This document shows positions 1,291 through 25,989 of a stretch of DNA of 32,000 bases, piece by piece; position 1 is the stretch's first letter; each line of letters opens with the position of its first letter. Under the pieces are notes generated by a model. It had not been told where the DNA came from and made no database searches. It saw nothing but the letters and a program-made list of their open reading frames with translations. The stretch is from assembly GCF_007559435.1 (NCBI RefSeq), contig NZ_VMBP01000001.1, forward strand, positions 465,406 through 497,405. Direction: 5' to 3'. The position numbers and the translations under genes are program-made. The stretch is from Ancylobacter moscoviensis (GTDB taxonomy: Bacteria; Pseudomonadota; Alphaproteobacteria; Rhizobiales; Xanthobacteraceae).

Positions 1291-1402
1291 GCCGCGTCTC
1301 TAGCACAATTCGTTAACAGCCGAAACGCTGCGCACCGGCAACGGTCCCGCACGGTCCGGCCACAAGCTCCCGATCGCGTTGCAGATCGCCGGGGAAAGCG
1401 CG

Positions 1403-3418: not shown

Positions 3419-3492
3419 CCAAACAGGATGGACAGCGCAATGCTTAGATGTAATCGAATACCTTGGAAGCGCCGCACTGGAGGATGCCGTTG

Positions 3493-4206: not shown

Positions 4207-4811
4207 ACGCGTCACCTTAAATCTCACCTAGAGAAAGCGTCCGTTCCACTTGCTGTGGAGGGCGATCCGTCGACTATTGCCGCTGACACACAAGGTGTCG
4301 GCAGGTGGTCATTATATGACATTATCTACGATTTTTAATAATATTGAACAAAAATACACTAAAAATGGGAGAAAAATTCGCGTTCTAGGCATGCGAAGGC
4401 AGAGATGCGTCGCGCACATCGCGAGATGGATGCCCGAACTTGCCAGTGTGGAGCGCGGAGCCATTTACTTGCCAAGCCTGGATTTAGCGAAGAATTTCGG
4501 TCTTCTCGGCGGGGCTGCTGCACGTGGCCCGGGTTCGTCGTCGGCCACGCCCCTGTTCTTCCCGGGGGTTCAGGTTGCGGGCCCGTCCGCGGGATCGGTT
4601 GTCCACCCGATCCGGCCTGAATTTCATGGCCCGCGAGCCATGCAGCTTCCGCCTTCGGAACAGTCTGGCCGCAGCGCCGTTCCGAAGCCTCCCTCAGCCT
4701 TCTCATAAATTCTTCAGCCGCCCGGCATCGGGACGGCGCGCTTTGTAATGGCGCCATGGCCCGGCTGCCCGCGACACCTCCACCGCACTCAATGATGCAG
4801 GTATCTGATGA

Positions 4812-5078
4812 CCGTGCCGGCATCTATGCCGTCGACCGTGGAACGGGCGACACACCACCGGCTACGGCGTCGGCGGGACCCTGACCTGGTACGGCAATAA
4901 CGGCTTCTACGTCGACGGCCAGGCCTCGGTGACGTGGTACGAGAGCGACCTGAAGTCCGATCTGGCGGGTACCCTCGCCAAGAATCTCGACGGCCTCGGC
5001 TACGCCTTCTCGGTGGAAGCGGGCCGGCGCTGCGAGGGCAGCCCGTCTGGCCGATGGCATTGCGAACGGGAAAGTTAA
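4812..5078 (+). pseudogene. Relic of an autotransporter beta-barrel (translocator) domain
   Basis: The stop-to-stop frame has no ATG and reads TTGYGVGGTLTWYGNNGFYVDGQASVTWYESDLKSDLAGTLAKNLDGLGYAFSVEAGRR. This is the typical autotransporter beta-domain strand pattern, but it then runs into unrelated residues and TAA at 5076-5078. An upstream piece (AGIYAVDRGTGDT) sits in another frame, implying a frameshift near 4852-4858. Confidence 0.5.
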
Positions 5079-5291
5079 GAGTACCCATAGTGTAACCGGC
5101 TGACTAGAACAGTCAGCAAGTGACAGTTAGTGACATTGTAAATAAGTATAAATATATATGATAATAAAGATGGAGCGGGAATGTCATTCCATCTGCGCTG
5201 TAGAGGAGCGTGGTGCGTAGGGGTGGCCGCCGACGAAGTTCCTGGTCGAGTAGAAAGCAAAATCATCCAGGGTCTCTAGGGGCGACTTACC

Positions 5292-6794
5292 ATGCCTTTG
5301 AAAAGGGAATTGCGGCGCAGTTGCTCTGCGCTGGCGATTGTGTGCGTGTTGGGAATGGCCGGCCCGGTCTTCGCCCAGACGGCGTCGAACGAGGAATTAT
5401 TCAAGCTTATTCAGGAGCTTCAGACGAAGCAGAGGGCTCTTGAAAACAAGCTCGGAGCCGCAAACGGCGAAATTGCGCGGCTCAAATCTCAACAGTCAAG
5501 GAACTCGGCATTCGCCGCGGCCCCGGCGGTTGGCGTCCAGACCGGAAGCATCGATTCCGGCCCGATCGGCTTCAACCCGCCGCCTGATCCGAGACGCGCC
5601 GTCAGTACGACAAACGTGCGCGTGGAAGCGGGCGGCGGCTACAACGGAGCCGGCTTCGGCGAGGTCGGCGGCTCACTCGCCGTCCCACTCGGCGACAGAT
5701 ACGGCTTCCAGATCGATGCTCTGGGTGGCATGGCCGAGGAAAACGGCATTGCCGGCGCGGCCGCCCACCTTTTCTGGCGCGATCCCGAGGTTGGCGCGCT
5801 CGGTCTTTACGGGAGCTACCTCTACGGCACCGCAGACTGGGGCTTCGACTCCAACGGCTTTGCCAATTCCGGAATGTACGATTTCAAGGGCGGCCTTGAA
5901 GGTCAGCTCTATCTCGGACAATTCACCCTGCAGGGTATCGTCGGCGTCGAGTGGAACAATTTCGGGAGCGGGGATGCCTTTGGCTATTATGGCCAGAGCG
6001 AAGCGCGCTTCTTCGACGACATCCGGCTGGCCTGGTACGCGACAGACGACTTCAAGCTGAGCATCGGCCATCGCTATACGAACGGCGCGAATCAGCTTGT
6101 CGGCGGCCTTGAATACCTGGCCGATTTTGGAGGGGGAACGGCGGCGTCACTGTTCCTCGACGCGTCGTACAGCACCGAGCGCCCGGATTACGGCTATTAC
6201 GGCGATCATTACTCGGGCGACGACTTCACGGTCCTGGCGGGCATCCGGGTCTATTTCGGCTCGGGCAGCACGCCGGCGCCTTCGACAAGCACCGGTGGCT
6301 ACTTCTCGAAGGAGCACGGTTACATCCCGGCCAAGGCTCCCAGCCAGCCCGGTGGACGCTCGCTCAAGCAGCGGGATCGCGGCGATCTGATGCCGAGCTA
6401 TCTCGGCTTCGACGTCGGCGATCTGCCGAAGGCACGGAAGGCGGCTGTCGTCGGTCTGCCCGGTGTGCCGGGAGCGCCGGGCAATCCTGGAACGCCTGGA
6501 ACACCTGGAACACCTGGAACGCCCGGCGCTGCCGGTGCGCCCGGTTCGGACGGCACTCCCGGTACGCCCGGCAAGGACGGTCTTCCCGGTGCACCCGGTT
6601 CGAACGGTGATCCCGGCGCCCCCGGTGCGCCCGGCAAGGATGGTCTTCCCGGGACCCCCGGTTCGGACGGTCTCCCCGGTACACCCGGTTCGAGCGGCGA
6701 GCCCGGTACGCCCGGTCCGGAAGGGTCCCCCGGCGTCCCGGGCAGTCCTGGCCCGTCCGGTCCCCCCGGCCCTCCCGGACCTCCCGGTCCCTGA
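5292..6794 (+). CDS. Secreted chimeric protein: signal peptide, short coiled coil, Omp25/31-like beta-barrel region, linker, C-terminal collagen-like triple-helix repeat
   Basis: 500-aa ORF. The signal peptide [30 protein letters not shown] is followed by the heptad-like [35 protein letters not shown]. Alternating amphipathic strands follow ([76 protein letters not shown]). The protein ends in 113 aa of perfect G-X-Y. Confidence 0.8.
6453..6791 (+). repeat. Collagen-like G-X-Y repeat-coding tract (37 uninterrupted triplets + GP), with 9-bp near-tandem units
   Basis: [34 protein letters not shown]...[11 protein letters not shown] has Gly at every third residue with no interruption. At the DNA level, ggaacgcct/ggaacacct/ggaacacct/ggaacgccc lies around 6489-6524. 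Confidence 0.9.
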
Positions 6795-6802
6795 AGCTTC
6801 TG

Positions 6803-6885
6803 ACGCCAGCGGCCGAAATCGAATGCAGCCGCTGGCGTGGCAGCACAATACGAGCAGCCCGTCTCGGTCGGGCGACGGGCTGCTC
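6803..6885 (+). terminator. Two strong GC hairpins downstream of the collagen-like gene (terminator-like)
   Basis: Hairpin 1 pairs ACGCCAGCGGC (6803-6813) with GCCGCTGGCGT (6828-6838). Hairpin 2 pairs GAGCAGCCCGTC (6852-6863) with GACGGGCTGCTC (6874-6885). Only a weak T-rich tail (cgatttgatt) follows. Confidence 0.5.
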
Positions 6886-6914
6886 GACGCCCGATTTGAT
6901 TGCGAAGGCTGACC

Positions 6915-7685
6915 ATGACGGGACCAAAACTCGAGTGCTATGCGTTGCACGATCCTTCGCCGCAGCTGGTGGCGGCCGCCGCGGATCGGGACTGGATGGA
7001 CGCGACCAACCAGCATTTCGCTTACCGCTGCACGCCCCTCTCCATTGCCAACGCTTCCGGGTGGGAGGTGCTGAATCCCGTCGGCTTCTCGGCCACCTGG
7101 ACCGGATGGAACGGCAAGCAGGACGTCATTCTCCGCCCGCACGAGGCGGGCGTGAATCTGCGCCACACCGGGCTGTTCTTCGGCCACGGAATCCTGAGTT
7201 TCCACCCCGGCTATCTCTTCAGGACCGATCCCGACTGGACAATGTGGGTTCGTGGCTCTCCCAACCGTCTCAAGGATGGGATCCAGCCGCTCGATGGCAT
7301 CGTCGAAACCGGCTGGCTGCCGTTCACCTTCACCATGAACTGGAAGTTCACGCGCCCCTGCACGGTGCATTTTGAGAAGGGAGAGCCCTTCTGCTTCATC
7401 ACGCTGGTGCCGGCCGTCACGATCGAGAGCGTGCAACCGGTGATCCACCGCATCGCCGAAAATGCCGAACTGAACAGGGAATACAAATCCTGGACAAGCG
7501 AGCGGACGAAATTCAGCGCAGCCATCGACCTCGGTGATCCCCTGGCCAATGAACAGAAATGGCAAAAGAACTATCTCGTCGGCCGCTCGCCGAGCGGTAA
7601 CTCCGTCGCCGGCGACAATCACCGCGTGAAGCGCAACCTCAAGGCGCCCATCTGGGCCGACAAGCCGCCCGCGTCGGAAGACTGA
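6915..7685 (+). CDS. Hypothetical protein, DUF6065-like
   Basis: The ORF is open from 6900. GAAGG at 6905-6909 precedes the ATG at 6915. The N-terminal motif [21 protein letters not shown] resembles, from memory, the conserved C-x-P-x(3)-AN-x(2)-GWE core of the DUF6065 family. GC3-rich codon usage supports that it is coding. Confidence 0.6.
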
Positions 7686-7761
7686 GCCCGCTCTGGCCCA
7701 GCGGATGAGGCGCACCCCGCATTTCGGCCCGCGGGAGCTGGAAAAGCGGGGAGCGGGTCAC

Positions 7762-13627: not shown

Positions 13628-14197
13628 TCAAGCCTCGTTGACCGAGAGGCTGCCGGAAGAGCCGAGGACGATGGGGCGCACGTTCGCTGGCTGGGCCAGG
13701 TAGGCGGGCCGGCGCACGGCAACGAGGCGCTGCTTGGAGAGGCGGGAGATCGTCACGCGGTCGGACTGGTTTCCGCCGAGGACATGGAAGGCCGAGGCGT
13801 CGTGGCCGACATAGAGGCCGACATGCCCTCCGCAACTGCGCTTGAAGACGAGGACATCGCCGAGTGCCGCTGCGCTTTTCGGGATCGCTTTGCCGAACGC
13901 GGTCCAGGCGAGCGCCGAGAGGTAGAGTTTCGGTGGATTGCGTTCCGGCCGGCGTTCGACATTCGCCCGGTGGGCGGTCACCGCCATGAACAGCCCGCAC
14001 CAGGGGATCGCATCGGCGTCGTAGAAGCCGCCATAGTCTCGGCCGAGTCCTGCCGCCTGAAGCTCACGCTGCCAGCCGAGAATGCGCGGATTGTCCGCGT
14101 TGCCCGGCGCCTCCATGACACCGAATTCTTTCAGGGCTTCGACCAGCATGCGCGGTCCCGGCTCGCTCGCGAGCCAGCGGTAGTCTTTGGGCAACAT
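13628..14197 (-). CDS. Phage cell-wall hydrolase / endolysin, TIGR02594-type (NlpC/P60-CHAP-like)
   Basis: The ATG at 14197 is preceded by GGAGA. The motifs NPRILGW, IPWCGLFMAV (catalytic Cys context), GDVLVFKR..GGHVGLYVG and VLGGNQSDRVTI match the TIGR02594 family pattern as I recall it. Confidence 0.8.
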   Translation of the reverse strand: MLPKDYRWLASEPGPRMLVEALKEFGVMEAPGNADNPRILGWQRELQAAGLGRDYGGFYDADAIPWCGLFMAVTAHRANVERRPERNPPKLYLSALAWTAFGKAIPKSAAALGDVLVFKRSCGGHVGLYVGHDASAFHVLGGNQSDRVTISRLSKQRLVAVRRPAYLAQPANVRPIVLGSSGSLSVNEA

Positions 14198-14207
14198 CGG
14201 GATCTCC

Positions 14208-14234
14208 AAACAAAAAAACCCGCCGGAGGGCGGG
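14208..14234 (-). terminator. Rho-independent terminator (minus strand) between the membrane-protein gene and the endolysin
   Basis: The minus strand reads CCCGCC-ctcc-GGCGGG followed by TTTTTTTGTTT. The stem is at 14219-14234 and the T-tract at 14208-14218. Confidence 0.65.
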
Positions 14235-14260: not shown

Positions 14261-14602
14261 TCAGGCGTGCTTCCGCTCGTCCTCATGGTTTTCGAGGCGG
14301 TCGATGCGCTCGCGAAACTCGCCAAGCGTCGCCTTCATCTGGGCGATGTCGGTTCGGGCCTCGGCGACGACCTTGCGGCCGGCGATGTCGTTCGAGACGT
14401 CCACCTTGATCTCCGCGATCTCGCGGGCGTTCGCGGCGAAGCTCGCGTCGATCAGGGCAAACCGGCCGGAGAGCCACCAGGCGATCCTGACGAGGAACAC
14501 GATCAGGATCAGAAGCTCGGCGATGATACTGCCTGCGACCATCCAGGTGATCGTGATGGCTTCGGGCGCGACGGTGACAGCCGCCGCAGGGACTGCGGAC
14601 AT
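14261..14602 (-). CDS. Phage membrane protein: one N-terminal TM helix + coiled coil (holin/spanin-like candidate)
   Basis: The ATG at 14602 follows GAGAGGAG. The sequence is MSAVPAAAVTVAPEAITITWMVAGSIIAELLILIVFLVRIAWWL, then the charged helical AREIAEIKVDV...IAQMKATLGEFRERIDRLENHEDERKHA. Confidence 0.6.
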   Translation of the reverse strand: MSAVPAAAVTVAPEAITITWMVAGSIIAELLILIVFLVRIAWWLSGRFALIDASFAANAREIAEIKVDVSNDIAGRKVVAEARTDIAQMKATLGEFRERIDRLENHEDERKHA

Positions 14603-14742
14603 GGTGACTCCTCTCAGGGTTTTGGGTTGGCGAACGCTGGCGCACACGTCGCCGAGGGGCGCGAAGGGCGGGCGGAGCGCGGTATCCCCCGCAGGCGTGT
14701 GCGGTCGCGCCCACGGGGCGCCTGTCGCGCGACTGTGGCCGG

Positions 14743-15441
14743 TCAGGCGTTGGGGGCCGTGAAGGCGAGCGCGTAGAGGACGAGGCGCACCCTGCCGCCG
14801 GTAAAGTTGCCGCCGGCGGCGGTCACACGCACGGGCGTGTCAGCGTAGAAAGCGGTTGGACCGATCACACCGATATTGGTTGAGCCCAGCGCGATCCCGA
14901 GCGAGCCGCCGAACTGGCTGGTGTTGCCGGCGACGCCGACCGAATAGGACGTCGCTCCAGTGATGGCCTGCGTGGTCCGTGACGCGACGGCGAGAACAAT
15001 CATCCGATCGGCGATCACGACGGTGGTCGCATCGACGTAGGCGCCCGAGAGGGTAAGCTCTTGTTCGAGCGCGACGAGGCGAATCGCCCCACCATTCGGC
15101 GTGCCGACGATCCGATCACGCCAGGCGCCGTCGGACCAGGTGAGCGTCAATCGCTCATCCTCGACATGGATCGTCCAACCGGCGTTGGGGATGAGGAAGG
15201 TCCAGGCTCCCGAAAGCCAGACCGCGATCTGCCCGGCCTTGCTCGCCCAAAGACCCGTCGGGCTTGCCCCGATGATCCAGCGCTCGCCCTCATTCGGACT
15301 GGCGGGTGGCGCGGAGAGGCTGCGGGTCTTCACCGCCGGCATGACGAGGGCATCAAGCAGTGCGAGCCCTTCATTGACGGTGACGTGCTTCTGCGCCTGG
15401 TCGGCCGCGAGCTGCGGCAGACCAAGATTGGTCGTCGGCAT
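14743..15441 (-). CDS. DUF2793-type phage tail fibre-like protein
   Basis: The N-terminus TTNLGLPQLAADQAQKHVTVNEGLALLDALV...PPASPNEGERWIIG...WASKAGQIAVWLSGAWTFLIPNAGW matches the DUF2793 signature found after g15 in GTA-like tail modules. Confidence 0.75.
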   Translation of the reverse strand: MPTTNLGLPQLAADQAQKHVTVNEGLALLDALVMPAVKTRSLSAPPASPNEGERWIIGASPTGLWASKAGQIAVWLSGAWTFLIPNAGWTIHVEDERLTLTWSDGAWRDRIVGTPNGGAIRLVALEQELTLSGAYVDATTVVIADRMIVLAVASRTTQAITGATSYSVGVAGNTSQFGGSLGIALGSTNIGVIGPTAFYADTPVRVTAAGGNFTGGRVRLVLYALAFTAPNA

Positions 15442-15468: not shown

Positions 15469-18400
15469 TCAGAGCGTGCTTGTGATTTCGGCGCTTCCGC
15501 CCGGACCGAAGACGCGCGAGACCTGCGCCACGCGCCATTTGAGCGTCGCCGGCTGCGCCCCGAAATCCGCGACCTGCTGGGCCGCCGTGTAGAGAAGGTT
15601 CGCGCTCGTCACCCGCGTCGCCCGGAGCACGGTCGATCCGTTGAGGATCGCAACGTCGTATTCCTCGGCCTCTTCGCCGAGTGGAACCTCGGCAAACCAG
15701 GAATCGCCGCCGATGCGGCTGCGCCGGATCCAAGAGAGGCGCACATCGCCTCCGGTTTCGCGGCTGGCCCTCAGATGAACCGGCGTGAATGGCTTCAGGC
15801 CGCGTCCGCCATTGGCGAAGGGCAGCGACAGCGCATGATCGCCGGCGGGCCCTTCCGGCACGGGCGCCCCCTTGTAGGCGATCGTCAACCCGAGCCGCGA
15901 AACCGAGAACGTGGGGCGCACCTGCCGGGCGGGGTCGAGCATGATGAAGCGCGATCCGGCCGGATGGGTGACGACCTCGCCCTCGGTGCCGCGCTGGCCG
16001 CGCAGGAGGCGCGAGAGGCGATAGCGCCCGGCGGCAATCAACTCGGCAGTCGCGAACTGGACGATCTCGTTGCCGATCAGCGCCGCGTTCGATCCCGCCA
16101 GCACCCGCTCGTCGGGCAGAGATTGCAGTGCGCCGTGGTCGAGCTGAACCTCGACGCTGTTCCCGCGATCCCAAATCCAGACCGGCCCGGAAGACAGAGT
16201 GGTCACTGTCACCCCCATGGTCGAGGCAAGCGTCGCCACGGTTGCCGAAACATAGTCGAGACCGTCGGCGGTCGGCTGAAAGAGGCTGGCGCCCCGGAAC
16301 CGCCCACCGCCGAGCGGACATGCCGCCATGTAGAAGGACGGCGATGATGCCTCGTGCGCATCAATGAGGATGGGCATATCGAGAAGCTCGATGCGCACCG
16401 GTGAGACGGGCTCGGGGGCGGCAGGTGGCAGGCTCCCCGACCCTGTCGGCGTCGAGACGAAATCCGGATTACCGCCATCGGTGGCCTGGCCGCGCACCAG
16501 CACGAGGCCGGGCTTGCCAAAGGTGACCGAGGTGACACGGTATCGCCGCAGCGCACCGTCGACCGGCACCTCGACAACGTCGGTCGGGTCAATCTTGAGC
16601 CCTCGGGTTGGCAGGCGAAGATCGATTGCCTCGCGTCCCTGCCACATCTCGCGCAACGCCCGCTGCCCGATGGTTTGCGCCTGCTCGACCGAAAGCACGA
16701 TCGGCAAAGAGAAGGTCGTCACGCTGTCGGAGCGGCCGACCTGCTTGCGGATGGTGACGGTCGAGGACTGATAGTCGCGCCCCTCGTCGATGTGGACGAC
16801 ATCGATGGCGATGGGCAACTCGGTATCCTGCGTGCGCTCGATTTTCACCCGTGAGCGATCGCTGTCGCTGTCCGAGGCGCCAAGATCTTCAGCATCGATC
16901 GCTACGATGCCACTGCCGCCGCGCTTGACGAAGACGAGCTTGCCGTCGCGCTCGACACAATCGAAGAAGTAGGCCGTCTGAAGCACCGCGATCATGTCGC
17001 GGATCGATTTGCGTTCGGTCACCACATAGCCGACGACCTCGTCATCAAGCGCCGAGGCATCGAACTCGGATGCAAGCAACCCCGCACGCAGGCATAGATC
17101 GCCGACGATGTCGGAGAGTCGCATGTTGCCAATCTTTCCGTTGATCCAGTGACCGAGCCGGTAGTTCGCCCCGTCGCTCCAGACATTCGATAGCGTCGGG
17201 AACCATGGATAGGGCCGCGCGTCCCAACACCAGACGAAGCGTCTGGCCAGCATCGGTCCACCATAGGCGGGCGAGACCGGGTTGTTGGCCGGGTCGCGCC
17301 AGTATTCCTCCGTCGCCTCGAGCGCGGCGCGTTGGACGACACGGTCGACCGCGCCCGTCGAATAGTAGGGCGCGAAGCTCTCGACCGATTTCGGGTCGAT
17401 GAAGACGTTCGGCTGGTTGGTGGCGCAGTTCACCGTCGGAAAGCCGATCTCCGTGAACCAGATCGGCTTGGCGCGCGGCGTCCAATCCGTCGGCGATCCA
17501 GTCGGGACGCCGGCGACCCTTGGGATGTGAGTGTTCTCCCACCACCAGCGCAGCGCCTTGATCGCCCAGAAGGGCTCAGAGATCGGCGACCGGATCGGCG
17601 CAAGCCCACGCCGGTCGAGATCGCGGTCGGAGGGGCTCGCATAGTAGTAGTCGACGAGTTCACCGCCCTGCCAGCCGGCCTTGATCGCTTCCTTGTCCTG
17701 GACAGCGCGCGGCGCGTCAGTCAGCGGGAAATAGGCGTCGATCCCGACGACATCGATACTCGGATCGGCCCAGAGTTCATCGAGCGGGAAATCGACATCG
17801 CCGCCGCCACGGTCGTGGTAGCGATATTCCGACCAGTCGGCGCAATAGGTCACCTGGCAGGCAGAGCCGAGACGGCTCTTCGCCTCTGCGGCGATCTGCT
17901 TCCAATAGGCCACGGCTGGATAAGCTCCGCCGGCGTCCCGGATGCGATTGAGGGCGACCATTTCCGAACCGATCGCAAAGCCATCGACACCGCCTGCCTG
18001 CTCGCAGAGCGTCATTCCGTGCCGGATGAGCCGCAGATATCCATCGGCACGGGTGAAGAAGCCGGGCACGTCCGCGGCGGTGCCGGTGATGCGCCCGCGC
18101 CACGGAAAAGGCGCCGGATCGGGCGGCGGGATGTCCATCAGGATGAACGGGTAGAACAGAACCTTCAGGCCGCGCGCCTTCAGGTCCTGAATCGCGCGCA
18201 CAACGGCGCCGTCGGCGATCGTCCCGCCATAATAGAGGCCGAGCGAACCGTCGGGATGGGTATAGGACGAGACCATCGGCCAATGCGGCAGGCCGGAGAT
18301 CCCACCATCCATGCCGAAGAGCGGACGGCCGATGCCGGCGACGCTCCAGACATGAGGGCGGCTCTCCGGCACCTGATCGGCATAGACGCCCGTCTCGCAT

Positions 18401-19317
18401 TCCGGGCGCAACGAACAGGTCGCGACATCGAGCGACGTGCCAAACCAAGCATAGACCAGCGAGATCCATTCGACGTTCGGCAGTTCGCGCTGCAGGTTGT
18501 CGATTGCGACCGAGAAGTCGGCGCGCTTCTGGCCGGCATGGGCGTTGATCGCCGCCTTGAAACCGCTGCCCGCACCATGCCGGTTCGAGAACACGACGTC
18601 CGGATCGTAGGCGAACTCGCCCGATGCCGGGATGAGGCATAGGCTCTCGACGAGATGGCGCGCATCCGACGTGCCGGCGGGTGATCCGCGAAACACCTCG
18701 ATCTCGAAGTTCGGAAAGCGGTTGCCGAAGGCGGTGAGGTGGAGATTTTCGAGAACGACATAGGCCGTGCCGCGGAACGCCGGCGTGCGGTCTGCGCCTT
18801 CGACCGCCTGGATCAGCGGATCGGGGCCTTGCGCCTCGTCGCCATAGTAGATGCGGATTTCGTCGATGTGGTCGGAATCGATCGGCTGGCCGTCGACCCA
18901 GATGCGGTAGACCGAGGTCAACGGTCCTTCGCCAAGCCCCAGCGCCACATCGGCATAGTAGTGGTAGCTGGTCGTGACGACGGTCTGCGATCCGCCGCCG
19001 CCTTTGCCGCCGCCACCGACCGTTTCGGTGGTCGTGCGCACCTCCTCACGGATGCCGCGCGCCCAGATGATGTTGGCCGGGATCCGCCCTCGGCCATAGA
19101 CGTTCGGCCGGACTTGCCCGTAGGCCGATCCCGAGAGCCGGACATCGGTGACCTTGCCTTCTTCCCGCTTCTGACGGTTGGTCTGTGGGCCGAACAGCTG
19201 CTGGTCGAGGATGCCGCCGATGGTCGCGCCAAACAGCGCGCCGAGACCCTGGCCGAAGGCTCCGCCCACCGCCTGGCCGAGCGCGCCGCCCGCCAGCGTG
19301 AGTACGAGCTGGGCCAT
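15469..19317 (-). CDS. Host-specificity / baseplate 'megatron' protein (RcGTA g15-like, with TIM-barrel-like glycoside hydrolase region)
   Basis: 1282 aa. The Gly-rich N-terminus MAQLVLTLAGGALGQAVGG, then TTTETVGGGGKGGGG, QGPDPLIQAVEG, the large central domain and the position after the g12/g13/g14-like genes all match g15-type proteins. Confidence 0.9.
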   Translation of the reverse strand: MAQLVLTLAGGALGQAVGGAFGQGLGALFGATIGGILDQQLFGPQTNRQKREEGKVTDVRLSGSAYGQVRPNVYGRGRIPANIIWARGIREEVRTTTETVGGGGKGGGGSQTVVTTSYHYYADVALGLGEGPLTSVYRIWVDGQPIDSDHIDEIRIYYGDEAQGPDPLIQAVEGADRTPAFRGTAYVVLENLHLTAFGNRFPNFEIEVFRGSPAGTSDARHLVESLCLIPASGEFAYDPDVVFSNRHGAGSGFKAAINAHAGQKRADFSVAIDNLQRELPNVEWISLVYAWFGTSLDVATCSLRPECETGVYADQVPESRPHVWSVAGIGRPLFGMDGGISGLPHWPMVSSYTHPDGSLGLYYGGTIADGAVVRAIQDLKARGLKVLFYPFILMDIPPPDPAPFPWRGRITGTAADVPGFFTRADGYLRLIRHGMTLCEQAGGVDGFAIGSEMVALNRIRDAGGAYPAVAYWKQIAAEAKSRLGSACQVTYCADWSEYRYHDRGGGDVDFPLDELWADPSIDVVGIDAYFPLTDAPRAVQDKEAIKAGWQGGELVDYYYASPSDRDLDRRGLAPIRSPISEPFWAIKALRWWWENTHIPRVAGVPTGSPTDWTPRAKPIWFTEIGFPTVNCATNQPNVFIDPKSVESFAPYYSTGAVDRVVQRAALEATEEYWRDPANNPVSPAYGGPMLARRFVWCWDARPYPWFPTLSNVWSDGANYRLGHWINGKIGNMRLSDIVGDLCLRAGLLASEFDASALDDEVVGYVVTERKSIRDMIAVLQTAYFFDCVERDGKLVFVKRGGSGIVAIDAEDLGASDSDSDRSRVKIERTQDTELPIAIDVVHIDEGRDYQSSTVTIRKQVGRSDSVTTFSLPIVLSVEQAQTIGQRALREMWQGREAIDLRLPTRGLKIDPTDVVEVPVDGALRRYRVTSVTFGKPGLVLVRGQATDGGNPDFVSTPTGSGSLPPAAPEPVSPVRIELLDMPILIDAHEASSPSFYMAACPLGGGRFRGASLFQPTADGLDYVSATVATLASTMGVTVTTLSSGPVWIWDRGNSVEVQLDHGALQSLPDERVLAGSNAALIGNEIVQFATAELIAAGRYRLSRLLRGQRGTEGEVVTHPAGSRFIMLDPARQVRPTFSVSRLGLTIAYKGAPVPEGPAGDHALSLPFANGGRGLKPFTPVHLRASRETGGDVRLSWIRRSRIGGDSWFAEVPLGEEAEEYDVAILNGSTVLRATRVTSANLLYTAAQQVADFGAQPATLKWRVAQVSRVFGPGGSAEITSTL

Positions 19318-19320
19318 GGA

Positions 19321-19956
19321 TCAGGTCACAACTTCGAAGGAGAGCTGGGGAAGCCGGTTGCCGTAGGGTGTGATGTGCAAGCGTTCGAGGACGACATAGG
19401 CGAGCCCGCGATAGGCCGGTGTGTTCGCCACGCCCTCGACCGCTTGGATCAGGGGATCCGGCCCCTGTGTGTTCGAGCCGGTGTGGACGCGCATGTCCCC
19501 GACATGGGCTGGATCAAACACATTGCCGTCGGCGAAGGCGCGCGGCACCGAGGCGATCGGCCCCTGGCAGAGCCCGACCGCCACGTCGCAATAGTAGTGG
19601 TATTCCACGGTCGTTGTCGTCGTGCTGCCACCGCCGCCGCCCTTGCCGCCGCCGCCGACCGTCTCGGTCGTGGTGCGTGTCTCCTCTTCGAAACCGCGCA
19701 TCCAGATGATGTTCGAGGAAAGGCGCCCCTTGCCGTAAAGCGCCGGGATCACGCTTCCATAGCTCGACGACTGGACGCGCAGATCCTGTAGCCGCGCCCC
19801 GTAGATCGTCTGATCGGGCGTGCCCGAGCCGAAGATCTGCTGGTCGACCATGCCCCCGACATAGCCGCCGATCGCGCCGCCAATGGCGCCCCCGATGCCG
19901 GGCAGCAGCAGATTGCCGAGGACGTAGCCGCCGATGGTGAGGACGATGCGGGCCAT
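19321..19956 (-). CDS. Stand-alone paralog of the g15 N-terminal domain (211 aa)
   Basis: It aligns end to end with residues 1 to about 212 of the downstream 1282-aa protein. Shared blocks are DQQ[IL]FG, NIIW.RG, RTTTETVGGGGKGGGG, YHYY.DVA.GL, QGPDPLIQAVEG, AYVVLE.LH and GNR.P. Its stop TGA lies 3 nt before the g15 ATG. Confidence 0.8.
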   Translation of the reverse strand: MARIVLTIGGYVLGNLLLPGIGGAIGGAIGGYVGGMVDQQIFGSGTPDQTIYGARLQDLRVQSSSYGSVIPALYGKGRLSSNIIWMRGFEEETRTTTETVGGGGKGGGGGSTTTTTVEYHYYCDVAVGLCQGPIASVPRAFADGNVFDPAHVGDMRVHTGSNTQGPDPLIQAVEGVANTPAYRGLAYVVLERLHITPYGNRLPQLSFEVVT

Positions 19957-20000
19957 GCTAGGAAGAGGGTTAGATTGAGTTGATATGGAGAATGTGAGCG

Positions 20001-20708
20001 GTGGAGCCGCAGCTTTACATGTGGTCTGGAACGCGTGACCTATTCCTGAGACGGCACAGGTTTTTCGTCGACCAGGTCAAGGTGCGGGTGCTCTCACAGT
20101 TTCAAACGATCGAGGCCGACGCCGAGGCATACAGCGAGTCAGAGTATGACAGGCTCGCGTCACTCCCAGGGGATGAGAACAGCGACATGGCTGATGTCGC
20201 CGAGGCTGCCAACGACCGCGGCCAGGAGTTCTATGGCCTTCTTCACGATATGAAGAAGCAAATGATGTTGGCCGCGCTCGCAGCCATGTATCACCAGTGG
20301 GACAAGGATCTTCGCGATTTCATCGAACGTGAGCTCGTGCACTATTACGAAGGAAAGGCCGTTGCCGATCTCGTTTGGAAGCAGGACGTCGGGAAAATCT
20401 TTGACCTGCTCAGAGAGTTTGGATGGGATTGTCGGGCCAGCTCCTTCTTCGACCGAATCGAGGCCTGCCGCCTCATCGTCAACGTCTATAAGCATGGGAA
20501 AGGTCGATCCCTTGACGACCTCGCTCGCTCCTTTCCTCAATATCTAAATCATCCGTTCGTCAGCTTGGCCGAGAAGCCCTCGTTCGCCGCCGACTTTCTC
20601 GATTATGAGTGGGTTGAGATCTCAGACGATCAATTTGACGAGATGGCGAAAGCCATTTCCTGGTTCTGGGAGGAGTTCCCTGAGCGCCTTTTTCTGAAAG
20701 TGAGTTAA
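20001..20708 (+). CDS. Orphan all-alpha protein encoded opposite to the tail operon (moron-like, function unknown)
   Basis: 235-aa ORF, starting at GTG 20001 or at ATG 20019 (MWSGTRD). Its GC content is visibly lower than that of the flanks. No family was recognised, and it carries only a non-canonical HEPN-like stretch, ACRLIVNVYKHGKG. Confidence 0.65.
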   Translation: MEPQLYMWSGTRDLFLRRHRFFVDQVKVRVLSQFQTIEADAEAYSESEYDRLASLPGDENSDMADVAEAANDRGQEFYGLLHDMKKQMMLAALAAMYHQWDKDLRDFIERELVHYYEGKAVADLVWKQDVGKIFDLLREFGWDCRASSFFDRIEACRLIVNVYKHGKGRSLDDLARSFPQYLNHPFVSLAEKPSFAADFLDYEWVEISDDQFDEMAKAISWFWEEFPERLFLKVS

Positions 20709-21148
20709 CCATCGGAGCCGTTCATGATGCCCGGCAGCCGAAAGGCATGCCTAAGCTTCGGCCGCCAGAAGTCCGAGAAGGCGTGTTGAACCACGCGCCC
20801 GGCTTCCTGGTAGCAGTGGATCAACCCGCCTTCGAGCGTGAGAAACGCGCAATGATGCGCAGGGCCTTTGCCGGCGCCGAAGAGCAGGATGTCGGCGGGC
20901 AGTGCATCGGCCGAGTCGATCTCTTCGGCGACGGCTTTGAAGCCGAGATACATGCGCGGCTCGGCGCGGTAGAGATGCCAAGTCGGTGTGTAGTCGAGCG
21001 GAATATCGACCTTGCCCATGAACGGTTCGGCGACGCCACGGATGAAGCCGATGCAGTCGCACCCCACTCCCTTAGCGGCGGCTTGGTGGTGCCAGGGCGT
21101 GCCAAGCCATGTGCGGGCCTCGGCGAGGACGTCGTCGCGGGTGAACAT
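20705..21148 (-). CDS. NlpC/P60-family peptidase (RcGTA g14-like)
   Basis: WLGTPWHHQAAAKGVGCDCIGFIRGV gives the catalytic Cys context, with HHCAFL and the rest following. A 1-nt TGATG overlap links it to the upstream hub gene. Confidence 0.9.
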   Translation of the reverse strand: MFTRDDVLAEARTWLGTPWHHQAAAKGVGCDCIGFIRGVAEPFMGKVDIPLDYTPTWHLYRAEPRMYLGFKAVAEEIDSADALPADILLFGAGKGPAHHCAFLTLEGGLIHCYQEAGRVVQHAFSDFWRPKLRHAFRLPGIMNGSDG

Positions 21149-21987
21149 CAGTCACGCACCGGATAGCTGAAAACCTTGTCATTGCCGGGGATGTGCGGCT
21201 CGCCCCGGAAGTTCAGGACGTTGGAGAAGCGGCTGTGGCAGGTCTCAATGGTCTTGTCACACCCGGCGACGAGGCGGACCTGGTCCCCGGTGGCAATCAG
21301 TCGGGACATCGGTGTGAAGAGCGTCACCGACTGCCCGATCTGGGACAGGATCTCGGTCGCTGCCCCGGCATTTGCGCCGGTGAGGAAGGTGCAGATGCCG
21401 AACGTGTAGAAGCCCGACGAGCGCGCCGTCGGCACAGTAAACGTGTCGCCGGACGCGACCGCCGAGATGGTGAGCGTGTCGGTGAGCGGCACGAGGTCCA
21501 CGGTGCATTCGGCCGATCCGAGATCGGTGCGGCAGAGCCGCGAATAGAGCTGGCCGGAGGTCTGCTGGAGCCGATTGGCGATGCCCCGCACTTCGGCTGA
21601 AAAGCGCTGATCCGCGCGCTTTACCTCGCCGAGCCAACCGCGACGCAGCAGGACGTGCCCTTGTGCGAGGTTTGCCCAATTGACCAGCATGATGTCGATG
21701 CGCGCGCCATCGAAGCGTCCCGCCGTCAAGTCCTCGGGCTTCAGGGCGTCATCGTCGAGAAAACCGTCGACATCGAGGTTGTCGACGGAGAGGTCGGCGC
21801 CGGACTTGATCGCGGAGGGCAGAAAGCCGGTCGAGGCGACGTAGTTGAGGCCGAGATAGGCGATGTCCTGATCGTGGTCAGTGAAGCCGCGCACCCAGCC
21901 GTCGGCGCGTTCGAGACGCCAGAGGCAGGCAAGCGTCGTGACCTCGCCGTCGAGATGAGCGGCAAGGCCGGAACTCATGGTCTTCAT
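21148..21987 (-). CDS. Tail hub protein, DUF2163 + BR0599-type C-terminal domain (RcGTA g13-like)
   Basis: Start at the ATG at 21987 (MKTMSSGLAAHLDGEVTTLACLWRLERADGWVRGFTDHDQDI). The C-terminus reads GDQVRLVAGCDKTIETCHSRFSNVLNFRGEPHIPGNDKV. Confidence 0.85.
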   Translation of the reverse strand: MKTMSSGLAAHLDGEVTTLACLWRLERADGWVRGFTDHDQDIAYLGLNYVASTGFLPSAIKSGADLSVDNLDVDGFLDDDALKPEDLTAGRFDGARIDIMLVNWANLAQGHVLLRRGWLGEVKRADQRFSAEVRGIANRLQQTSGQLYSRLCRTDLGSAECTVDLVPLTDTLTISAVASGDTFTVPTARSSGFYTFGICTFLTGANAGAATEILSQIGQSVTLFTPMSRLIATGDQVRLVAGCDKTIETCHSRFSNVLNFRGEPHIPGNDKVFSYPVRD

Positions 21988-21997
21988 GGGAAGTGGC

Positions 21998-22582
21998 TCA
22001 GGTCCTGATTTCGACGATCGGGATCGACGATATCTGCTGAAGGTGGAAGGCGGTCGCGACCACTGGCAGGTGATCGGTGTCGAAGCGGCACGGCACATCG
22101 AAGCGGAAGTCCGCATAGGGCGTGGCCCCAGGCGCGGACGGGAACGTCACCCTGCCGGTCAAGTGATCGATGGTAACGCCCATGGGCGAGCCACTGACCC
22201 GCACGATCACCGAGCCGACTTCGGGCTTGGTGATGAGACGGACGTCCTCGCCTGGTCCGCTCGGATAGCGTCGCACCAGCTGCCAGATAAGCGAGTTGGC
22301 GGTCGCGAGCATCGCCTGTCCCGCCGCTTCGAAATCCGTCCAGTCACGGAACCGGAAGCCATAGGCGCGGCCCTTGCGAGCACGGAAGAAGGCGATCACC
22401 TCGGCCATCTGCTCGCGAGTGCGGATGCCGGTGCCGATGTCGTAGCGGGCGCGTGCGGCCTGCCAGTTGATGTTGCGCTGTTCGAAGCCGGAGGCGACCG
22501 CGATGATGTCGGTCGAGTATTCCGGCCCGCCGGTCGCGCCGCGCGCGATCGCATCGGGAAACCGCACATCGTGAAAGCCCAT
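21998..22582 (-). CDS. Distal tail protein, DUF2460/TIGR02217 (RcGTA g12-like)
   Basis: MGFHDVRFPDAIARGATGGPEYSTDIIAVASGFEQRNINWQAARARYDIG matches the family N-terminal signature. The gene lies directly after the tape measure. Confidence 0.85.
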   Translation of the reverse strand: MGFHDVRFPDAIARGATGGPEYSTDIIAVASGFEQRNINWQAARARYDIGTGIRTREQMAEVIAFFRARKGRAYGFRFRDWTDFEAAGQAMLATANSLIWQLVRRYPSGPGEDVRLITKPEVGSVIVRVSGSPMGVTIDHLTGRVTFPSAPGATPYADFRFDVPCRFDTDHLPVVATAFHLQQISSIPIVEIRT

Positions 22583-22593
22583 CGGAACATCCG

Positions 22594-25500
22594 TCAGAGA
22601 TTGCGCCGCGATCGTTCGATCGCCGCCGCCATCTCAGCGGTGATCTGCGATTGCGCGCGCCGGAAGGAAGAGGCGTCCGGCGTCGAGACGTTGAAGGTCA
22701 GCATGATCGGCGAGGACGATCCTCCGCGACCGCGCTCATAATCCGCAGCTTCCGCCCGGTTCAGGACCCTCTCACCGCGCTGAAGGATTGCCGGCATCTC
22801 GTCGGGCTTGAGATAACCGCCGCTGTGAAGCCGCGGCGCGCCGGCGAAAGCGAGAGCCGGCATCATGCGCATGGTCCCGCCGGCCCCGACGAGCCCCCCC
22901 TCGTGAAAGAGGCCAGCGAAAATCTGGCCGAAGAAGCCGCCGGCATTCGAGAGCGTCGGCAAATTGCCGCCGAACAGGAAGTTCTTGAGCGGATTGAGGA
23001 CCGCGAGCTTGATGATCTCGCGGCTGATGTCCTGCAAGGCCGAGCGTCCGGCATCTGCCCAGGACTTCCAGTCGGTCTTGCCCTGCGCCAGCACATCGCC
23101 GAAGCGGTCGAGCGCCGAGCCGACCGCGTTTTCGAGGCCGCGATAAGCCGCATCCTGCTTCTGCAGCTCCTGCGTCAGGCGCTCGACGCGACCGGCATTC
23201 TCGACGATCTTCTGGCCTTCCTCGGAGGCGAGATCGATGCCGCGCAAGCGCAGGCCCTGTTCGGCGCGGATCTGGGCGATCACCAGACCGCGCTCTGAGG
23301 CACTGCGGCCGACAAGCTCGATCTGCTTTTCGAGAAGCTTGATCTCGTCTTGCTGGTCGAGGATCGCCTGACGCCCGGCGAGCGTTCGCGTCAGTTCCTC
23401 AATCCGCCGCGCGCCCGCGAGTGCCGCCTGTCCTTCCGGGCTGCCCTTGTCGATCCCGACGCGGCGAAGCGCCTGGATCTCGCGAAGAACGGCAAGCTCG
23501 TCGCCACGCTTGGCGACCGAGGCTCCGACGAGCGCCACCTGGCGTTCGAGAAGAGCGATCTCTTCGCGCTGCTCGACAAGGCGCTCCTGGCCGCGCAGGC
23601 TTCGGCCGAGGCTCTCGATCTGGCCCGCCGCTTCGACATAGGCGCGCCCTTCGGCAGAAGCGATGTCGATGCCGCGCTGGCGCAGCTCCTGCTCGGCGCG
23701 CAGGATCGCCAGCACGCTGGACCGGGCGGCGACGCTCGCATTGACGAGCCCGACTTGCCGCTGCAGCAGTTCGATCTCGCGCCGCTTGTCCTCGATCGCC
23801 GAAAGCGCCTGCCCGCGAGCCTCCTCGGCATTGAGGCGCCCATAGGCTTCGCGCAGGCGCTCAATGATCTGCGTCAGCGTCGCGCGCGCATCGCCTTCCG
23901 CCAGGGCCTGCGCCGTGATGAGCGGCCGCAGGGCTTGTTCGAGCTGAAGCTGCTGCTGGGCGCGCGACGACGTGATCGTGCCCGAGGCGATGAGATCGTT
24001 GACCCGACGGCGTGCATCCGCCTCGAGGCCCAGATCCTGAACCTGTTTGGCGGCCGTCGCCGCGGTTTCGGCGATCCGCTCGCGTAAGGCCTGGCGGGCG
24101 CGGGTTTCGGCGTCGATTCCGTCGCGCGCCTGATCGATCAGCCCTTGCCGTCGGGCCTCAGCCGTCTCGGCGGCAGTCGCGCCTTCGAGGTAGGCCCGAG
24201 CGAGCGCCAGCGTCGCCCGGATCGTGACTTCGGTGACATTCGACTGCGACCGCAGCGCTTCGGCGGCAATATCCGAGCGGCTGCGGAACGCCTCCGCAGC
24301 GACTGCGGCAGTTCCAAGGCCGTCGCGATAGCGGTCGAGTTCGGCCCGGACGCGAGCATAGGCCTGCTCGACCTGCCCAACATCGGCGAGCTTGGCACGT
24401 GCCTGTGGGTCGGAGAGCGCCGCTCGCAGCGCGGCTTCCTGCTCGCGCAGACGCAGGAGATCGCGAGAACCCGGCGTGAGATCCCGCGCGGTTTCTCCAG
24501 CGCGGACTGAAAGCTCGTTCGCTCGGGCATCTGCGGCGATCTCGCGGGCGCGGCGCTGCTGTTCGTCCAGCTGCCGTTCGAGTTCTGCAATGCGCTGCTC
24601 GACCTGCGGCAGCATGAGGGGCACGAAGCCCGCGCTGTTCGCATTCTCTTGAAGCCTGGCGCGTTGCCAGCGCAGGAGATCGAGTTCTTCCTCGGGCCTC
24701 CGACCATCGACCGCCCGATCGACGGCGCGTCCGATGGCGTCCCAGGCGTTCGAAGCTTGGCGCCTGACATAGTCCCAGGCGCGACCGAAGGCATTGGTCG
24801 CCTGTTCGGCATTGGCGAGCGCCGGCACGAGGGCGTTCAGAAGAACGCGCTGCGCCTCCGTCCGGTTGTTCTGCTCGACCAGCGTGCGGATATAGGTCCG
24901 CGTGCGGTCGTCGAGGAAAGCGAGACGCTGATTGAGTTCATCGCCGCCGCGGACCGGGTCGGCGAGCGCCCCCGCCAGTTGCTCGGCGCCCTGCTTCGTC
25001 TCGACGCCGAGGGTGACCGCGAAATTCCGAGCGATGCTGATCGCCCGGCCCATTTCCTCCGCGCCGATCCTGCCGGTGCGGAGGAACGCAACCTCCATTT
25101 CGCGCGCCGACGAGACGGAGACTCGGCCAGCTTCCGAAGAGGTCCGGGCGATCCGTTCGAGTTGGGCGTTGGTCGCGCCCGAAGCACGACCAACGCCCGC
25201 GAGAGCCGTGGCGACGGCACGGGTCGAGGCATCGTTGGCGATCCAGGCGGCAGTGAGCCCGGCCGCAGCCACCGTGACGCCGGCGATCACGCCACCGACC
25301 ACGCCGATCGCCGACCCCAGCGTTGCCAGCGTCCCCCGCAGGCCGCCAAAAGCCTGCGTCACCTGACCACCCTGCTGGAGCAGGATGGTCATCGGCGAGA
25401 TGCCGGAGCCGAGCGAGGCGACGACATCATTGAACGTATATTGCAGCGTCAGGAGCTGCTGGCGCGACAGCGCGCTTGCGCCACCTACACCCCTGAGCGC

Positions 25501-25989
25501 CTTTTCCGTCGCCTCAAAACGCTGGCGGGCGAGCGTCTGCGCCGCCGCGTGCTCGGCGCTGGTGATGGCGCCGCGCTTGGCAAGCGCCGCATATTCTCCG
25601 AGTTCGCGGTTGAGCCGGTCCTGCGCGGCGCCGAGCGGGTCGAGTTCCGCCCGGAGCGCCGCCGCCCGACGGGCGAAGCTGTCAGCCTCGCGCGCCGCTT
25701 CCTCGAAGACGGCTGCCGAATCCCGCGCCGATTTCGGGACGGCAGTATCGACGCCGAGCACCGTGTTGAAGCGCTGCTGCGAAGCATCGGCCGCAGCAGC
25801 GAGTTTCGCGGTTTCCGCAAGGCGCTTCAGCCGGGCGGCCTGGCGGTCGATGGCAGCGCCAGCCTGATCGGTCGTGCGTTCGACTTGGCTGAATGCCGCG
25901 TGTCCGGCTCCGGCGACTTCCTCGAAACCACGCTTGACCTCCGCTTTGCCTTCGAGCCCGAGGCGGATCGAGACATTGGTGGTGGACAT
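22594..25989 (-). CDS. Tail tape measure protein (1131 aa)
   Basis: The protein is very long, Ala/Arg/Glu/Gln-rich and helical, with a central hydrophobic Gly-rich segment (GVVGGVIAGVTVAAAGLTAAWIA). It lies after the G/GT chaperone and before the g12-like gene, and it carries internal 72-aa repeats. Confidence 0.9.
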   Translation of the reverse strand: MSTTNVSIRLGLEGKAEVKRGFEEVAGAGHAAFSQVERTTDQAGAAIDRQAARLKRLAETAKLAAAADASQQRFNTVLGVDTAVPKSARDSAAVFEEAAREADSFARRAAALRAELDPLGAAQDRLNRELGEYAALAKRGAITSAEHAAAQTLARQRFEATEKALRGVGGASALSRQQLLTLQYTFNDVVASLGSGISPMTILLQQGGQVTQAFGGLRGTLATLGSAIGVVGGVIAGVTVAAAGLTAAWIANDASTRAVATALAGVGRASGATNAQLERIARTSSEAGRVSVSSAREMEVAFLRTGRIGAEEMGRAISIARNFAVTLGVETKQGAEQLAGALADPVRGGDELNQRLAFLDDRTRTYIRTLVEQNNRTEAQRVLLNALVPALANAEQATNAFGRAWDYVRRQASNAWDAIGRAVDRAVDGRRPEEELDLLRWQRARLQENANSAGFVPLMLPQVEQRIAELERQLDEQQRRAREIAADARANELSVRAGETARDLTPGSRDLLRLREQEAALRAALSDPQARAKLADVGQVEQAYARVRAELDRYRDGLGTAAVAAEAFRSRSDIAAEALRSQSNVTEVTIRATLALARAYLEGATAAETAEARRQGLIDQARDGIDAETRARQALRERIAETAATAAKQVQDLGLEADARRRVNDLIASGTITSSRAQQQLQLEQALRPLITAQALAEGDARATLTQIIERLREAYGRLNAEEARGQALSAIEDKRREIELLQRQVGLVNASVAARSSVLAILRAEQELRQRGIDIASAEGRAYVEAAGQIESLGRSLRGQERLVEQREEIALLERQVALVGASVAKRGDELAVLREIQALRRVGIDKGSPEGQAALAGARRIEELTRTLAGRQAILDQQDEIKLLEKQIELVGRSASERGLVIAQIRAEQGLRLRGIDLASEEGQKIVENAGRVERLTQELQKQDAAYRGLENAVGSALDRFGDVLAQGKTDWKSWADAGRSALQDISREIIKLAVLNPLKNFLFGGNLPTLSNAGGFFGQIFAGLFHEGGLVGAGGTMRMMPALAFAGAPRLHSGGYLKPDEMPAILQRGERVLNRAEAADYERGRGGSSSPIMLTFNVSTPDASSFRRAQSQITAEMAAAIERSRRNL

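Follow-up and report, generated by a model that had tools for sequence, protein, structure and literature searches.

A free-standing paralogue of the megatron N-terminal module encoded between g14 and g15 in a clade of Hyphomicrobiales prophages

The tail-tip genes of a prophage were analysed in a 32,000-nucleotide stretch of the Ancylobacter moscoviensis genome (contig NZ_VMBP01000001.1, positions 465,406 to 497,405 of the forward strand), hereafter referred to as the window; coordinates are those of this stretch unless another locus is named. At the centre of this work is S, an open reading frame (ORF) of 211 amino acids located immediately upstream of G, an adjacent ORF of 1282 amino acids which encodes a homologue of g15, the megatron of tail tips of the RcGTA type (GTA, gene transfer agent). 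The core of the locus is composed as follows:

19321..19956, minus strand: S, 211 amino acids, ATG start; free-standing paralogue of the megatron (g15) N-terminal module.
19318..19320, minus strand: spacer between S and G, 3 nucleotides; TGA tcc ATG, a junction of the termination-reinitiation type.
15469..19317, minus strand: G, 1282 amino acids; its own N-terminal module is encoded at 18682..19317.

When compared by BLASTP, residues 1-209 of S aligned with residues 1-208 of G with 110 of 209 positions identical (53%), one gap and an E value of 2e-63. An earlier note on this DNA, made from the letters alone, had described the ORF as a whole-length match to the N-terminal end of its neighbour with an identity of roughly half by eye. 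Both statements hold, and every shared block that it had listed was found within the alignment (DQQ[IL]FG, NIIW.RG, RTTTETVGGGGKGGGG, YHYY.DVA.GL, QGPDPLIQAVEG, AYVVLE.LH and GNR.P). The nucleotide identity of the two copies is 68-70% across approximately 370 nucleotides, and the synonymous divergence (dS) between S and the N-terminal end of G in the window genome is about 0.9. It follows from these values that the duplication is not recent, as the note had stated in calling S an old paralogue that did not arise by recent tandem duplication, and that gene conversion has not taken place; conversion between S and the N-terminal end of G was excluded by within-genome dS values of ~0.6-1.6. The reading of the junction was likewise accurate: the TGA of S lies 3 nucleotides before the ATG of G (GTG ACC TGA tcc ATG GCC), and no GGAG-type Shine-Dalgarno sequence was found ahead of either the S or the G start codon. 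Programmed readthrough joining S to g15 was considered and rejected. In the window the two ORFs are in frame, but the frame relation varies among relatives, with a TGATG overlap in two related loci (L001 and L011) and an 11-nucleotide gap in the group of another (L013).

G contains the Pfam domains GTA_TIM, Phage-tail_3 and Rcc01698_C and is matched over residues 1-1280 by phrog_4271, positions 1-203 of which also match S (E 9e-75). Among solved structures, S matched the RcGTA megatron (PDB 6TBA, chain 8A) over residues 13-202 with an E value of 1.2e-36 and the megatron of roseophage R4C (8GTC, chain M) over residues 4-207 with an E value of 8.8e-32; the N-terminal module of G scored 132.5 bits against RcGTA and 130.9 bits against R4C. 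In both structures residues 1-46 of the megatron constitute the iris/penetration domain, the helix of which shuts the tail channel and has been proposed to insert into the outer membrane, while residues 47 to 211/229 form the adhesin-like domain at the distal end, where the tail tunnel stops (PMC7296036, PMC10276861). Residues 1 to ~46 of S are a glycine-zipper hydrophobic iris/penetration segment (the match to Gly-zipper_Omp in Pfam is weak) and residues ~47-211 a beta-rich adhesin-like domain. Like the megatrons (PDB 6TBA/6TEH, 8GTC), to whose iris/penetration and adhesin-like domains it is homologous over its whole length, S has a glycine-rich, uncharged N-terminal helix, a GGGGKGGGG loop and a C-terminal GNR.P..FEV strand. 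Invariant glycines of the uncharged, 35-residue glycine-zipper helix are G10, G14, G20, G22, G26, G27, G30, G34 and G35. S had been noted to stop where the shared domain ends, and this position coincides with the end of the adhesin-like domain in the megatrons of RcGTA (residue 229) and R4C (residue 211). S thus comprises exactly the iris/penetration and adhesin-like domains of a megatron and ends at the domain boundary.

An AlphaFold2 model of S, built on 49 orthologues, had pLDDT values of 75-92 for residues 70-211; the N-terminus was not confident, as expected for a flexible part. When the PDB was ranked against this model with Foldseek, the RcGTA and R4C megatrons took ranks 1 and 2, followed by the hub protein pb3 of T5/DT57C, and in BFVD many N-termini of proteins named 'tip attachment protein J' were retrieved with a probability of 1.0. 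A Pfam search of S for GTA_TIM, Phage-tail_3 and Rcc01698_C showed these domains to be absent, the ORF ending at residue 211. Because they are lacking, S is best regarded as a paralogue of one megatron module and not as a megatron. In contrast to the latter it has no peripheral TIM-barrel, central (Dit-binding) or fibre-binding domain, so that it cannot anchor to the tail in megatron fashion, and it coexists with a complete megatron which retains its own N-module.

A search of 5.8 billion proteins revealed about 55 clusters of free-standing proteins of 208-218 amino acids with 58-95% identity to S. In a library clustered at 50% identity, the S group is represented by one entry (382 bits), and the next match, to the N-terminus of a long g15, scores 229 bits. 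Genomic context was read at 35 distinct loci, which derive from Blastochloris viridis, a Rhodoplanes assembly, Bauldia, Bosea minatitlanensis, two further genomes or metagenome-assembled genomes (MAGs) and 26 IMG/VR contigs; MAGs of Xanthobacteraceae are among the sources. The S protein of Bosea minatitlanensis (L010) is 96% identical to that of the window, with flanks of ~96.6% nucleotide identity; this was the one locus detected when genome contigs were scanned with the single protein S, and the taxonomic breadth given here rests on contigs encoding database homologues and on IMG/VR.

Wherever g14, the gene of the NlpC/P60 tail peptidase, was visible at the 35 loci, the order was g14, S (208-217 amino acids) and full-length G (1272-1291 amino acids). 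S and G are separated by -1 to 12 nucleotides in 33 of the 35 loci (TGATG overlap or TGA-nnn-ATG). At 22 compact loci the g14 stop codon is at most 12 nucleotides away from the start of S (gap of 2-12 nucleotides) or overlaps it (cTGATGg, seen in L011, L012, L013 and L034). Overlapping or abutting stops and starts of this kind are a signature of translational coupling from g14 via S to G and suggest that S is co-translated with its neighbours, which would account for the absence of Shine-Dalgarno sequences before S and G. A single g15 directly after g14 was found at 54 outgroup IMG/VR loci with GTA-type tails, in agreement with the statement of the note that g14 normally abuts g15 in RcGTA-type modules. 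The note had further raised the possibility that the two-gene layout is the standard and already described organisation of the family. Standard it is, as the 35 related loci demonstrate; a prior description of S or of the layout was not found in the literature searched. The two-gene layout is standard for a clade of Hyphomicrobiales prophages, by which the earlier finding is re-framed and not refuted.

The S homologue of Blastochloris viridis lies in a locus (L001; CP012946, 1288765..1307409) that retains intact copies of S, g15, a DUF2793 gene, the gene of a 735-residue protein and the lysis genes. Where tail genes would be expected upstream of S, it has a transposase, a serine recombinase and an 1854-residue DEAD/helicase protein instead; the prophage seems to have been truncated or rearranged while keeping S and g15. 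Short matches at 42-52% identity were checked as possible independent free-standing N-domains. P0069 is part of a g15 gene that has decayed, P0158 resides on a contig of 735 nucleotides and P0063 is cut by a contig end; these candidates were rejected. P0210 is an N-domain ORF that stands alone in a rearranged element. In another lineage, a 207-residue ORF consisting of the N-domain only (L098, 314..937; 42% identity to S) adjoins patatin and GIY-YIG genes on the strand opposite to g13, g12 and the tape measure gene. It may be an independent free-standing or a remnant copy.

To place S relative to g15, 33 S proteins, 32 G N-domains and 52 outgroup N-domains were aligned (205 columns), and trees were calculated by neighbour joining with 500 bootstraps. 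S, G, and S and G together were each monophyletic in 500/500 replicates, which points to one old duplication in the ancestor of the clade and not to import from a distant phage. As one explanation, the note had offered an exchange of modules with a related phage, of which S would be the footprint; this idea conflicts with the conservation of S and with a tree in which the S and G N-domains group as sisters apart from all 52 outgroups. Within each genome S and the G N-domain are 43-55% identical, and orthologues share 63-97% identity in the case of S and 56-96% in that of the G N-domain. The pair of S and g15 has been inherited together across a clade diverged to ~65% identity. S seemed closer to the outgroups than G in the IMG/VR set only, which had been retrieved with S-derived motifs, and this apparent difference was discarded; unbiased comparisons with the PDB and with phage records revealed no clear asymmetry of S and G toward outgroups.

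Ratios of nonsynonymous to synonymous divergence (dN/dS) were estimated according to Nei and Gojobori (NG86) for pairs with dS < 0.8. Values for S ranged from 0.055 to 0.18, equal to or below those of the G N-domain, and the comparison of the window with Bosea minatitlanensis gave 0.074. The mean Kimura distance was 0.318 among S proteins versus 0.404 among G N-domains. The largest difference between the two was found in residues 1-46 (0.277 for S versus 0.481 for G). Fifty-three positions are conserved in S only, and unlike the megatrons S carries substitutions at family-invariant positions, the fixed replacements being W->F141, L->I195 and G->P19. The frame is intact at 208-217 amino acids in 34 of the 35 loci. 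From the conserved frame, the dN/dS values and the S-specific sites it follows that S codes for a functional, specialised protein and is no scar. A recurrence of the split arrangement under purifying selection, which the note had proposed to look for, is what the 35 related loci display; its counter-proposal of a short copy disrupted or evolving neutrally in relatives is not borne out by these data.

S is not adjacent to g14 in the window, a fact overlooked by the earlier note. The two genes are separated by the following insertion:

19957..20724: cargo cassette, 768 nucleotides, between the 3' end of g14 and the ATG of S; it carries an ORF of 235 amino acids at 20001..20708 on the plus strand.

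The G+C content of the cassette is 0.53-0.57 as compared to ~0.65 in the flanks. Homology of the window to L010 and L012 stops at 20725/6 and resumes exactly at the ATG of S (19956). In the same slot, the 96.6% identical Bosea prophage L010 contains a different cassette of 1.25 kb, and the 90% identical, compact IMG/VR relative L012 contains none. The product of the 235-residue ORF belongs to phrog_19541; its 165 homologues are called 'hypothetical' wherever they are named, and the family is widespread in Alphaproteobacteria (e.g., Bradyrhizobium, Sphingomonas and Pseudorhodoplanes). It had no match in Pfam or PADLOC, and by its position it is a candidate defence gene. In scans of the cargo region the number of promoter-like as well as of terminator-like sites was 0, and no flanking repeats that would hint at a transposon or an att site were found.

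Cargo between g14 and S is present in 11 loci, with at least nine different contents that are mostly located on the opposite strand and have a lower G+C content. Cargo of this and of neighbouring junctions includes:

L003, 1270..9001, between g14 and S: complete Type I restriction-modification system.
L024, 3850..4889, between g14 and S: PD-T4-7.
L025, 5863..8613, between g14 and S: PDC-S48/DEDDh exonuclease and PD-T7-5.
L021 and L031, between g14 and S: T5orf172-like protein.
L005, 9653..10745, between S and G: RES-Xre toxin-antitoxin pair.
L007, 3946..8385, between g13 and g14: ORF of 1515 amino acids.
L013, between g12 and g13: insert of 2.4 kb.
L041, between g12 and g13: DUF3800 protein.

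The g12/g13, g13/g14, g14/S and S/G junctions are cargo hotspots in this prophage clade. They share with the defence hotspots of the P2/P4 type (Rousset et al., bioRxiv 10.1101/2021.01.21.427644) a fixed slot between conserved phage genes, with interchangeable cargo which is mostly encoded on the opposite strand, is lower in G+C and includes known defence genes. Unlike the latter, the slots described here are situated within a tail-tip operon, that of GTA-type siphophage prophages of Hyphomicrobiales, and they concern the neighbourhood of S and not S itself.

The further tail genes of the window are:

20705..21148, minus strand: g14-like NlpC/P60 tail peptidase (NLPC_P60, weak; phrog_329).
21148..22116, minus strand: g13-like baseplate hub, analogue of lambda gpL (Phage_phiJL001_Gp84_N, Phage_BR0599).
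21998..22582, minus strand: g12-like distal tail protein (DUF2460).
22594..25989, minus strand: tape measure protein, 1131 amino acids; 73-98% identity to the tape measure proteins of related loci, with TMP_2 on the L005 orthologue.
14743..15441, minus strand: tail-fibre-like protein directly downstream of g15 (DUF2793).

The tape measure protein of 1131 amino acids marks the window element as a siphophage-type prophage with a long tail, as opposed to a GTA with a short one. The mechanically called g13 ORF (322 amino acids, start at 22116) overlaps the g12 ORF by 119 nucleotides (21998..22116); relatives align to it only from residue ~43/44, and for this reason translation probably begins near 21987. 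On the downstream side of the fibre gene, a second NlpC/P60-like ORF of 193 amino acids (13628..14209, minus strand) and an ORF of 128 amino acids with a hydrophobic stretch (14261..14647, minus strand) probably form a lysis cassette, at the position of which relatives have GH108 and GTA_holin_3TM instead. Host-like ORFs occupy the low-coordinate end (190..7715), including an SLT transglycosylase (190..1290), a HisKA/HATPase sensor kinase (1403..3418) and a collagen-repeat protein (5292..6794, plus strand). The prophage boundary is therefore placed between ~7.7 and 13 kb.

A small tip protein encoded at the equivalent position is known from phage lambda, where the genes are arranged in the order L-K-I-J and gene I is located between K (NlpC/P60) and J. 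Residues 135-223 of lambda gpI form a trimeric plug with a hydrophobic, Gly-rich segment in the lumen of the tip, and gpI packs on gpJ by beta-augmentation (PMC10721106). S resembles gpI in that it is small and separately encoded, by a gene that follows the NlpC/P60 gene (K/g14) and precedes the central tip gene (J/g15), and it may also share a hydrophobic, glycine-rich segment followed by beta strands, which in gpI pack on J. A faint sequence link is the short motif G.V[IL]P.LYG..R[LV], common to both proteins. On the profile of phrog_31, which includes fused I-J proteins, gpI residues 54-209 map to positions 132-276 and gpJ residues 1-300 to positions 263-562; residues 4-173 of the window g15 map to positions 179-346 and straddle the two ranges. 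This mapping suggests that the megatron N-module may correspond to the C-terminal half of gpI plus the N-terminal end of gpJ. S is unlike gpI in lacking the Lambda_tail_I (ubiquitin-like) N-domain, in its marginal overall sequence similarity and in extending ~110 residues further, into the counterpart of the J N-terminus. Moreover, lambda has one plug copy, whereas two are encoded here (S and the N-terminal end of g15).

Other phages encode the N-module twice or, perhaps, separately. The Caulobacter jumbo phage CcrColossus (L015; NC_019406, 85763..92951) possesses tandem full-length g15 paralogues, gp122 (1198 amino acids) and gp123 (1196 amino acids), directly after its NlpC/P60 gene, and two matching places were also found in CcrPW, CcrSC, CcrBL9, C2, RB23, BL47 and Brevundimonas jumbo phages. 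In the isolated Caulobacter phage Ccr34 (L102; KY555147, 68919..72394), g15 is annotated as gp103 (266 amino acids, corresponding to the N-module) and gp104 (869 amino acids), 65 nucleotides apart. This split is either a sequencing frameshift or belongs to a viable phage with a separate N-module polypeptide; if it is real, the N-module can work as a polypeptide of its own. As in the CcrColossus-type jumbo phages and Ccr34, the N-module of the prophages studied here is duplicated or separately encoded directly after g14. They differ in combining a short extra copy with a complete g15, while both copies of CcrColossus are full length and the split in Ccr34 is without duplication and may be an artefact. 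By analogy, CcrColossus and Ccr34 make a separate or extra N-module plausible.

The chances seem to us about even that S is a structural subunit of the tail tip, namely a co-translated, second and free-standing plug/penetration module. One ancient duplication of the 5' ~630 nucleotides of g15 generated a free-standing iris/penetration helix with its adhesin-like domain, and purifying selection then preserved this copy as a late tail gene. S would supply a second set of glycine-zipper helices which gate the tail channel and enter the outer membrane at infection, and it would be the functional counterpart of lambda gpI, a separately encoded tip plug whose gene is located between the homologues of K and J. 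The much stronger conservation of the helix in S than in g15 suggests that after duplication the plug/penetration role may largely have been handed to S (subfunctionalisation). S shares the strand of the late tail genes and lies close against them. As far as sequence goes, the data support the functional small baseplate subunit envisaged in the note (intact in 34/35 loci, dN/dS 0.06-0.18). A hetero-oligomeric tip, proposed on account of the far higher conservation of the S helix, is a possible but tentative extension of this model. Here three free S subunits and three g15 N-modules would build a six-helix glycine-zipper gate and outer-membrane pore, and S, re-created by duplication of the megatron N-terminus, would act as a detachable plug in the manner of lambda gpI and assume the main penetration role.

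Several observations speak against S being a structural, gpI-like subunit. The solved tips of RcGTA and R4C are complete without an S-like component. At the cargo-bearing loci, including the window, S is uncoupled from g14, its expression there is assumed, and neither a sigma-70 promoter nor a Shine-Dalgarno sequence for S was recognisable. The hhalign alignment of S residues 65-97 with gpI residues 185-212 (YGSVIPALYGKGRL / QGNVLPVLYGEMRV) is weak (E 4e-4, probability 35%), and hhalign against the N-terminus of lambda gpJ returned nothing. Lambda_tail_I (PF06805) was not detected in S or in the g15 N-module even at E <= 10, while lambda gpI matches it at 1e-28; owing to this result S was not filed as a member of the gpI family. 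No S orthologue was present among the isolated phages of INPHARED, in which the best matches had <60% identity and were all inside full-length g15. Finally, S is disrupted in one locus, that of the Xanthobacteraceae MAG GCA_041397365.1 (L100, 6840..7474), where the frame shifts near codon 45, perhaps through an error of assembly, and ORFs of 67 and 157 amino acids result. This locus also has a cargo gene of 194 amino acids on the opposite strand between g14 and S.

The completeness of the RcGTA and R4C tips, which need no added subunit, would fit an assembly factor that is absent from the virion. S would then serve as a chaperone or template on the g13 hub or the g15 N-module while the tip is being assembled, for instance by nucleating trimerisation or by keeping hydrophobic helices soluble, and would subsequently be released. 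The apparent coupling of S expression with g14 and g15 and the purifying selection on S are compatible with this role, and lambda gene I has long been classed, and is annotated, as encoding a 'tail assembly protein'. However, lambda gpI proved to be a structural plug (PMC10721106), and a strongly conserved, uncharged glycine-zipper helix of 35 residues is more in keeping with a function in a membrane or gate than with a soluble chaperone. We regard an assembly factor as unlikely, although sequence by itself does not discriminate between this role and one in a membrane or gate.

Considerably less probable is a function of S in superinfection exclusion or as a dominant-negative decoy, which the note had put forward. 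Produced in the lysogen, S would enter the envelope or poison the tail assembly or DNA entry of related phages. Its glycine-zipper N-terminus is membrane-competent, it adjoins defence cargo in many loci, and in the window a moron that is probably expressed in lysogeny is oriented divergently from it. Yet at the 22 compact loci the ATG of S, in late-operon orientation, overlaps or nearly abuts the g14 stop, which leaves no space for a promoter of its own. In addition, S lacks a PADLOC match, co-diverges with g15 and evolves conservatively without diversification, and since the cargo beside it varies while S is constant, the link to defence is positional.

That S is a neutral relic, i.e. a 5' fragment of g15 left by illegitimate recombination, cargo insertion or modular exchange and kept only for its DNA, which might serve as a homology arm in cargo swaps, is very improbable and already largely refuted: the g14/S junction is a recombination hotspot with its many different cargos, S and the N-terminal end of g15 are somewhat more diverged near the cargo than the flanks when the window is compared with L010, and one frameshifted S exists, but the frame has stayed open in all other loci across divergence to 65% identity and under low dN/dS, S is present without any cargo in 22 loci, and its joint monophyly with G leaves no import from a distant lineage.

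Tail tips of the RcGTA type, as present in GTAs, roseophages and phiCbK-like phages, are thought to open and cross the outer membrane by means of the N-terminal helices of the megatron trimer. To our knowledge, genetic tests of this outer-membrane step have never been made, since the helices belong to an essential protein of 1300 residues. S offers a handle on the penetration step: deletion, tagging or exchange of S would leave g15 unaltered, and the place of S in the particle can be established. The cargo and defence hotspots around S, previously unreported and situated inside a tail operon, are useful for mining alphaproteobacterial defence genes. Rather than a recombination scar, the layout of S indicates a so far undescribed variant of the GTA-type tail tip, and the clade documents how lambda-like (I plus J) and GTA-like (fused) tips can interconvert by duplication and truncation. 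If the hetero-oligomeric reading is true, S would represent a new architecture of the GTA-type tip and a natural experiment demonstrating that the penetration module works in trans.

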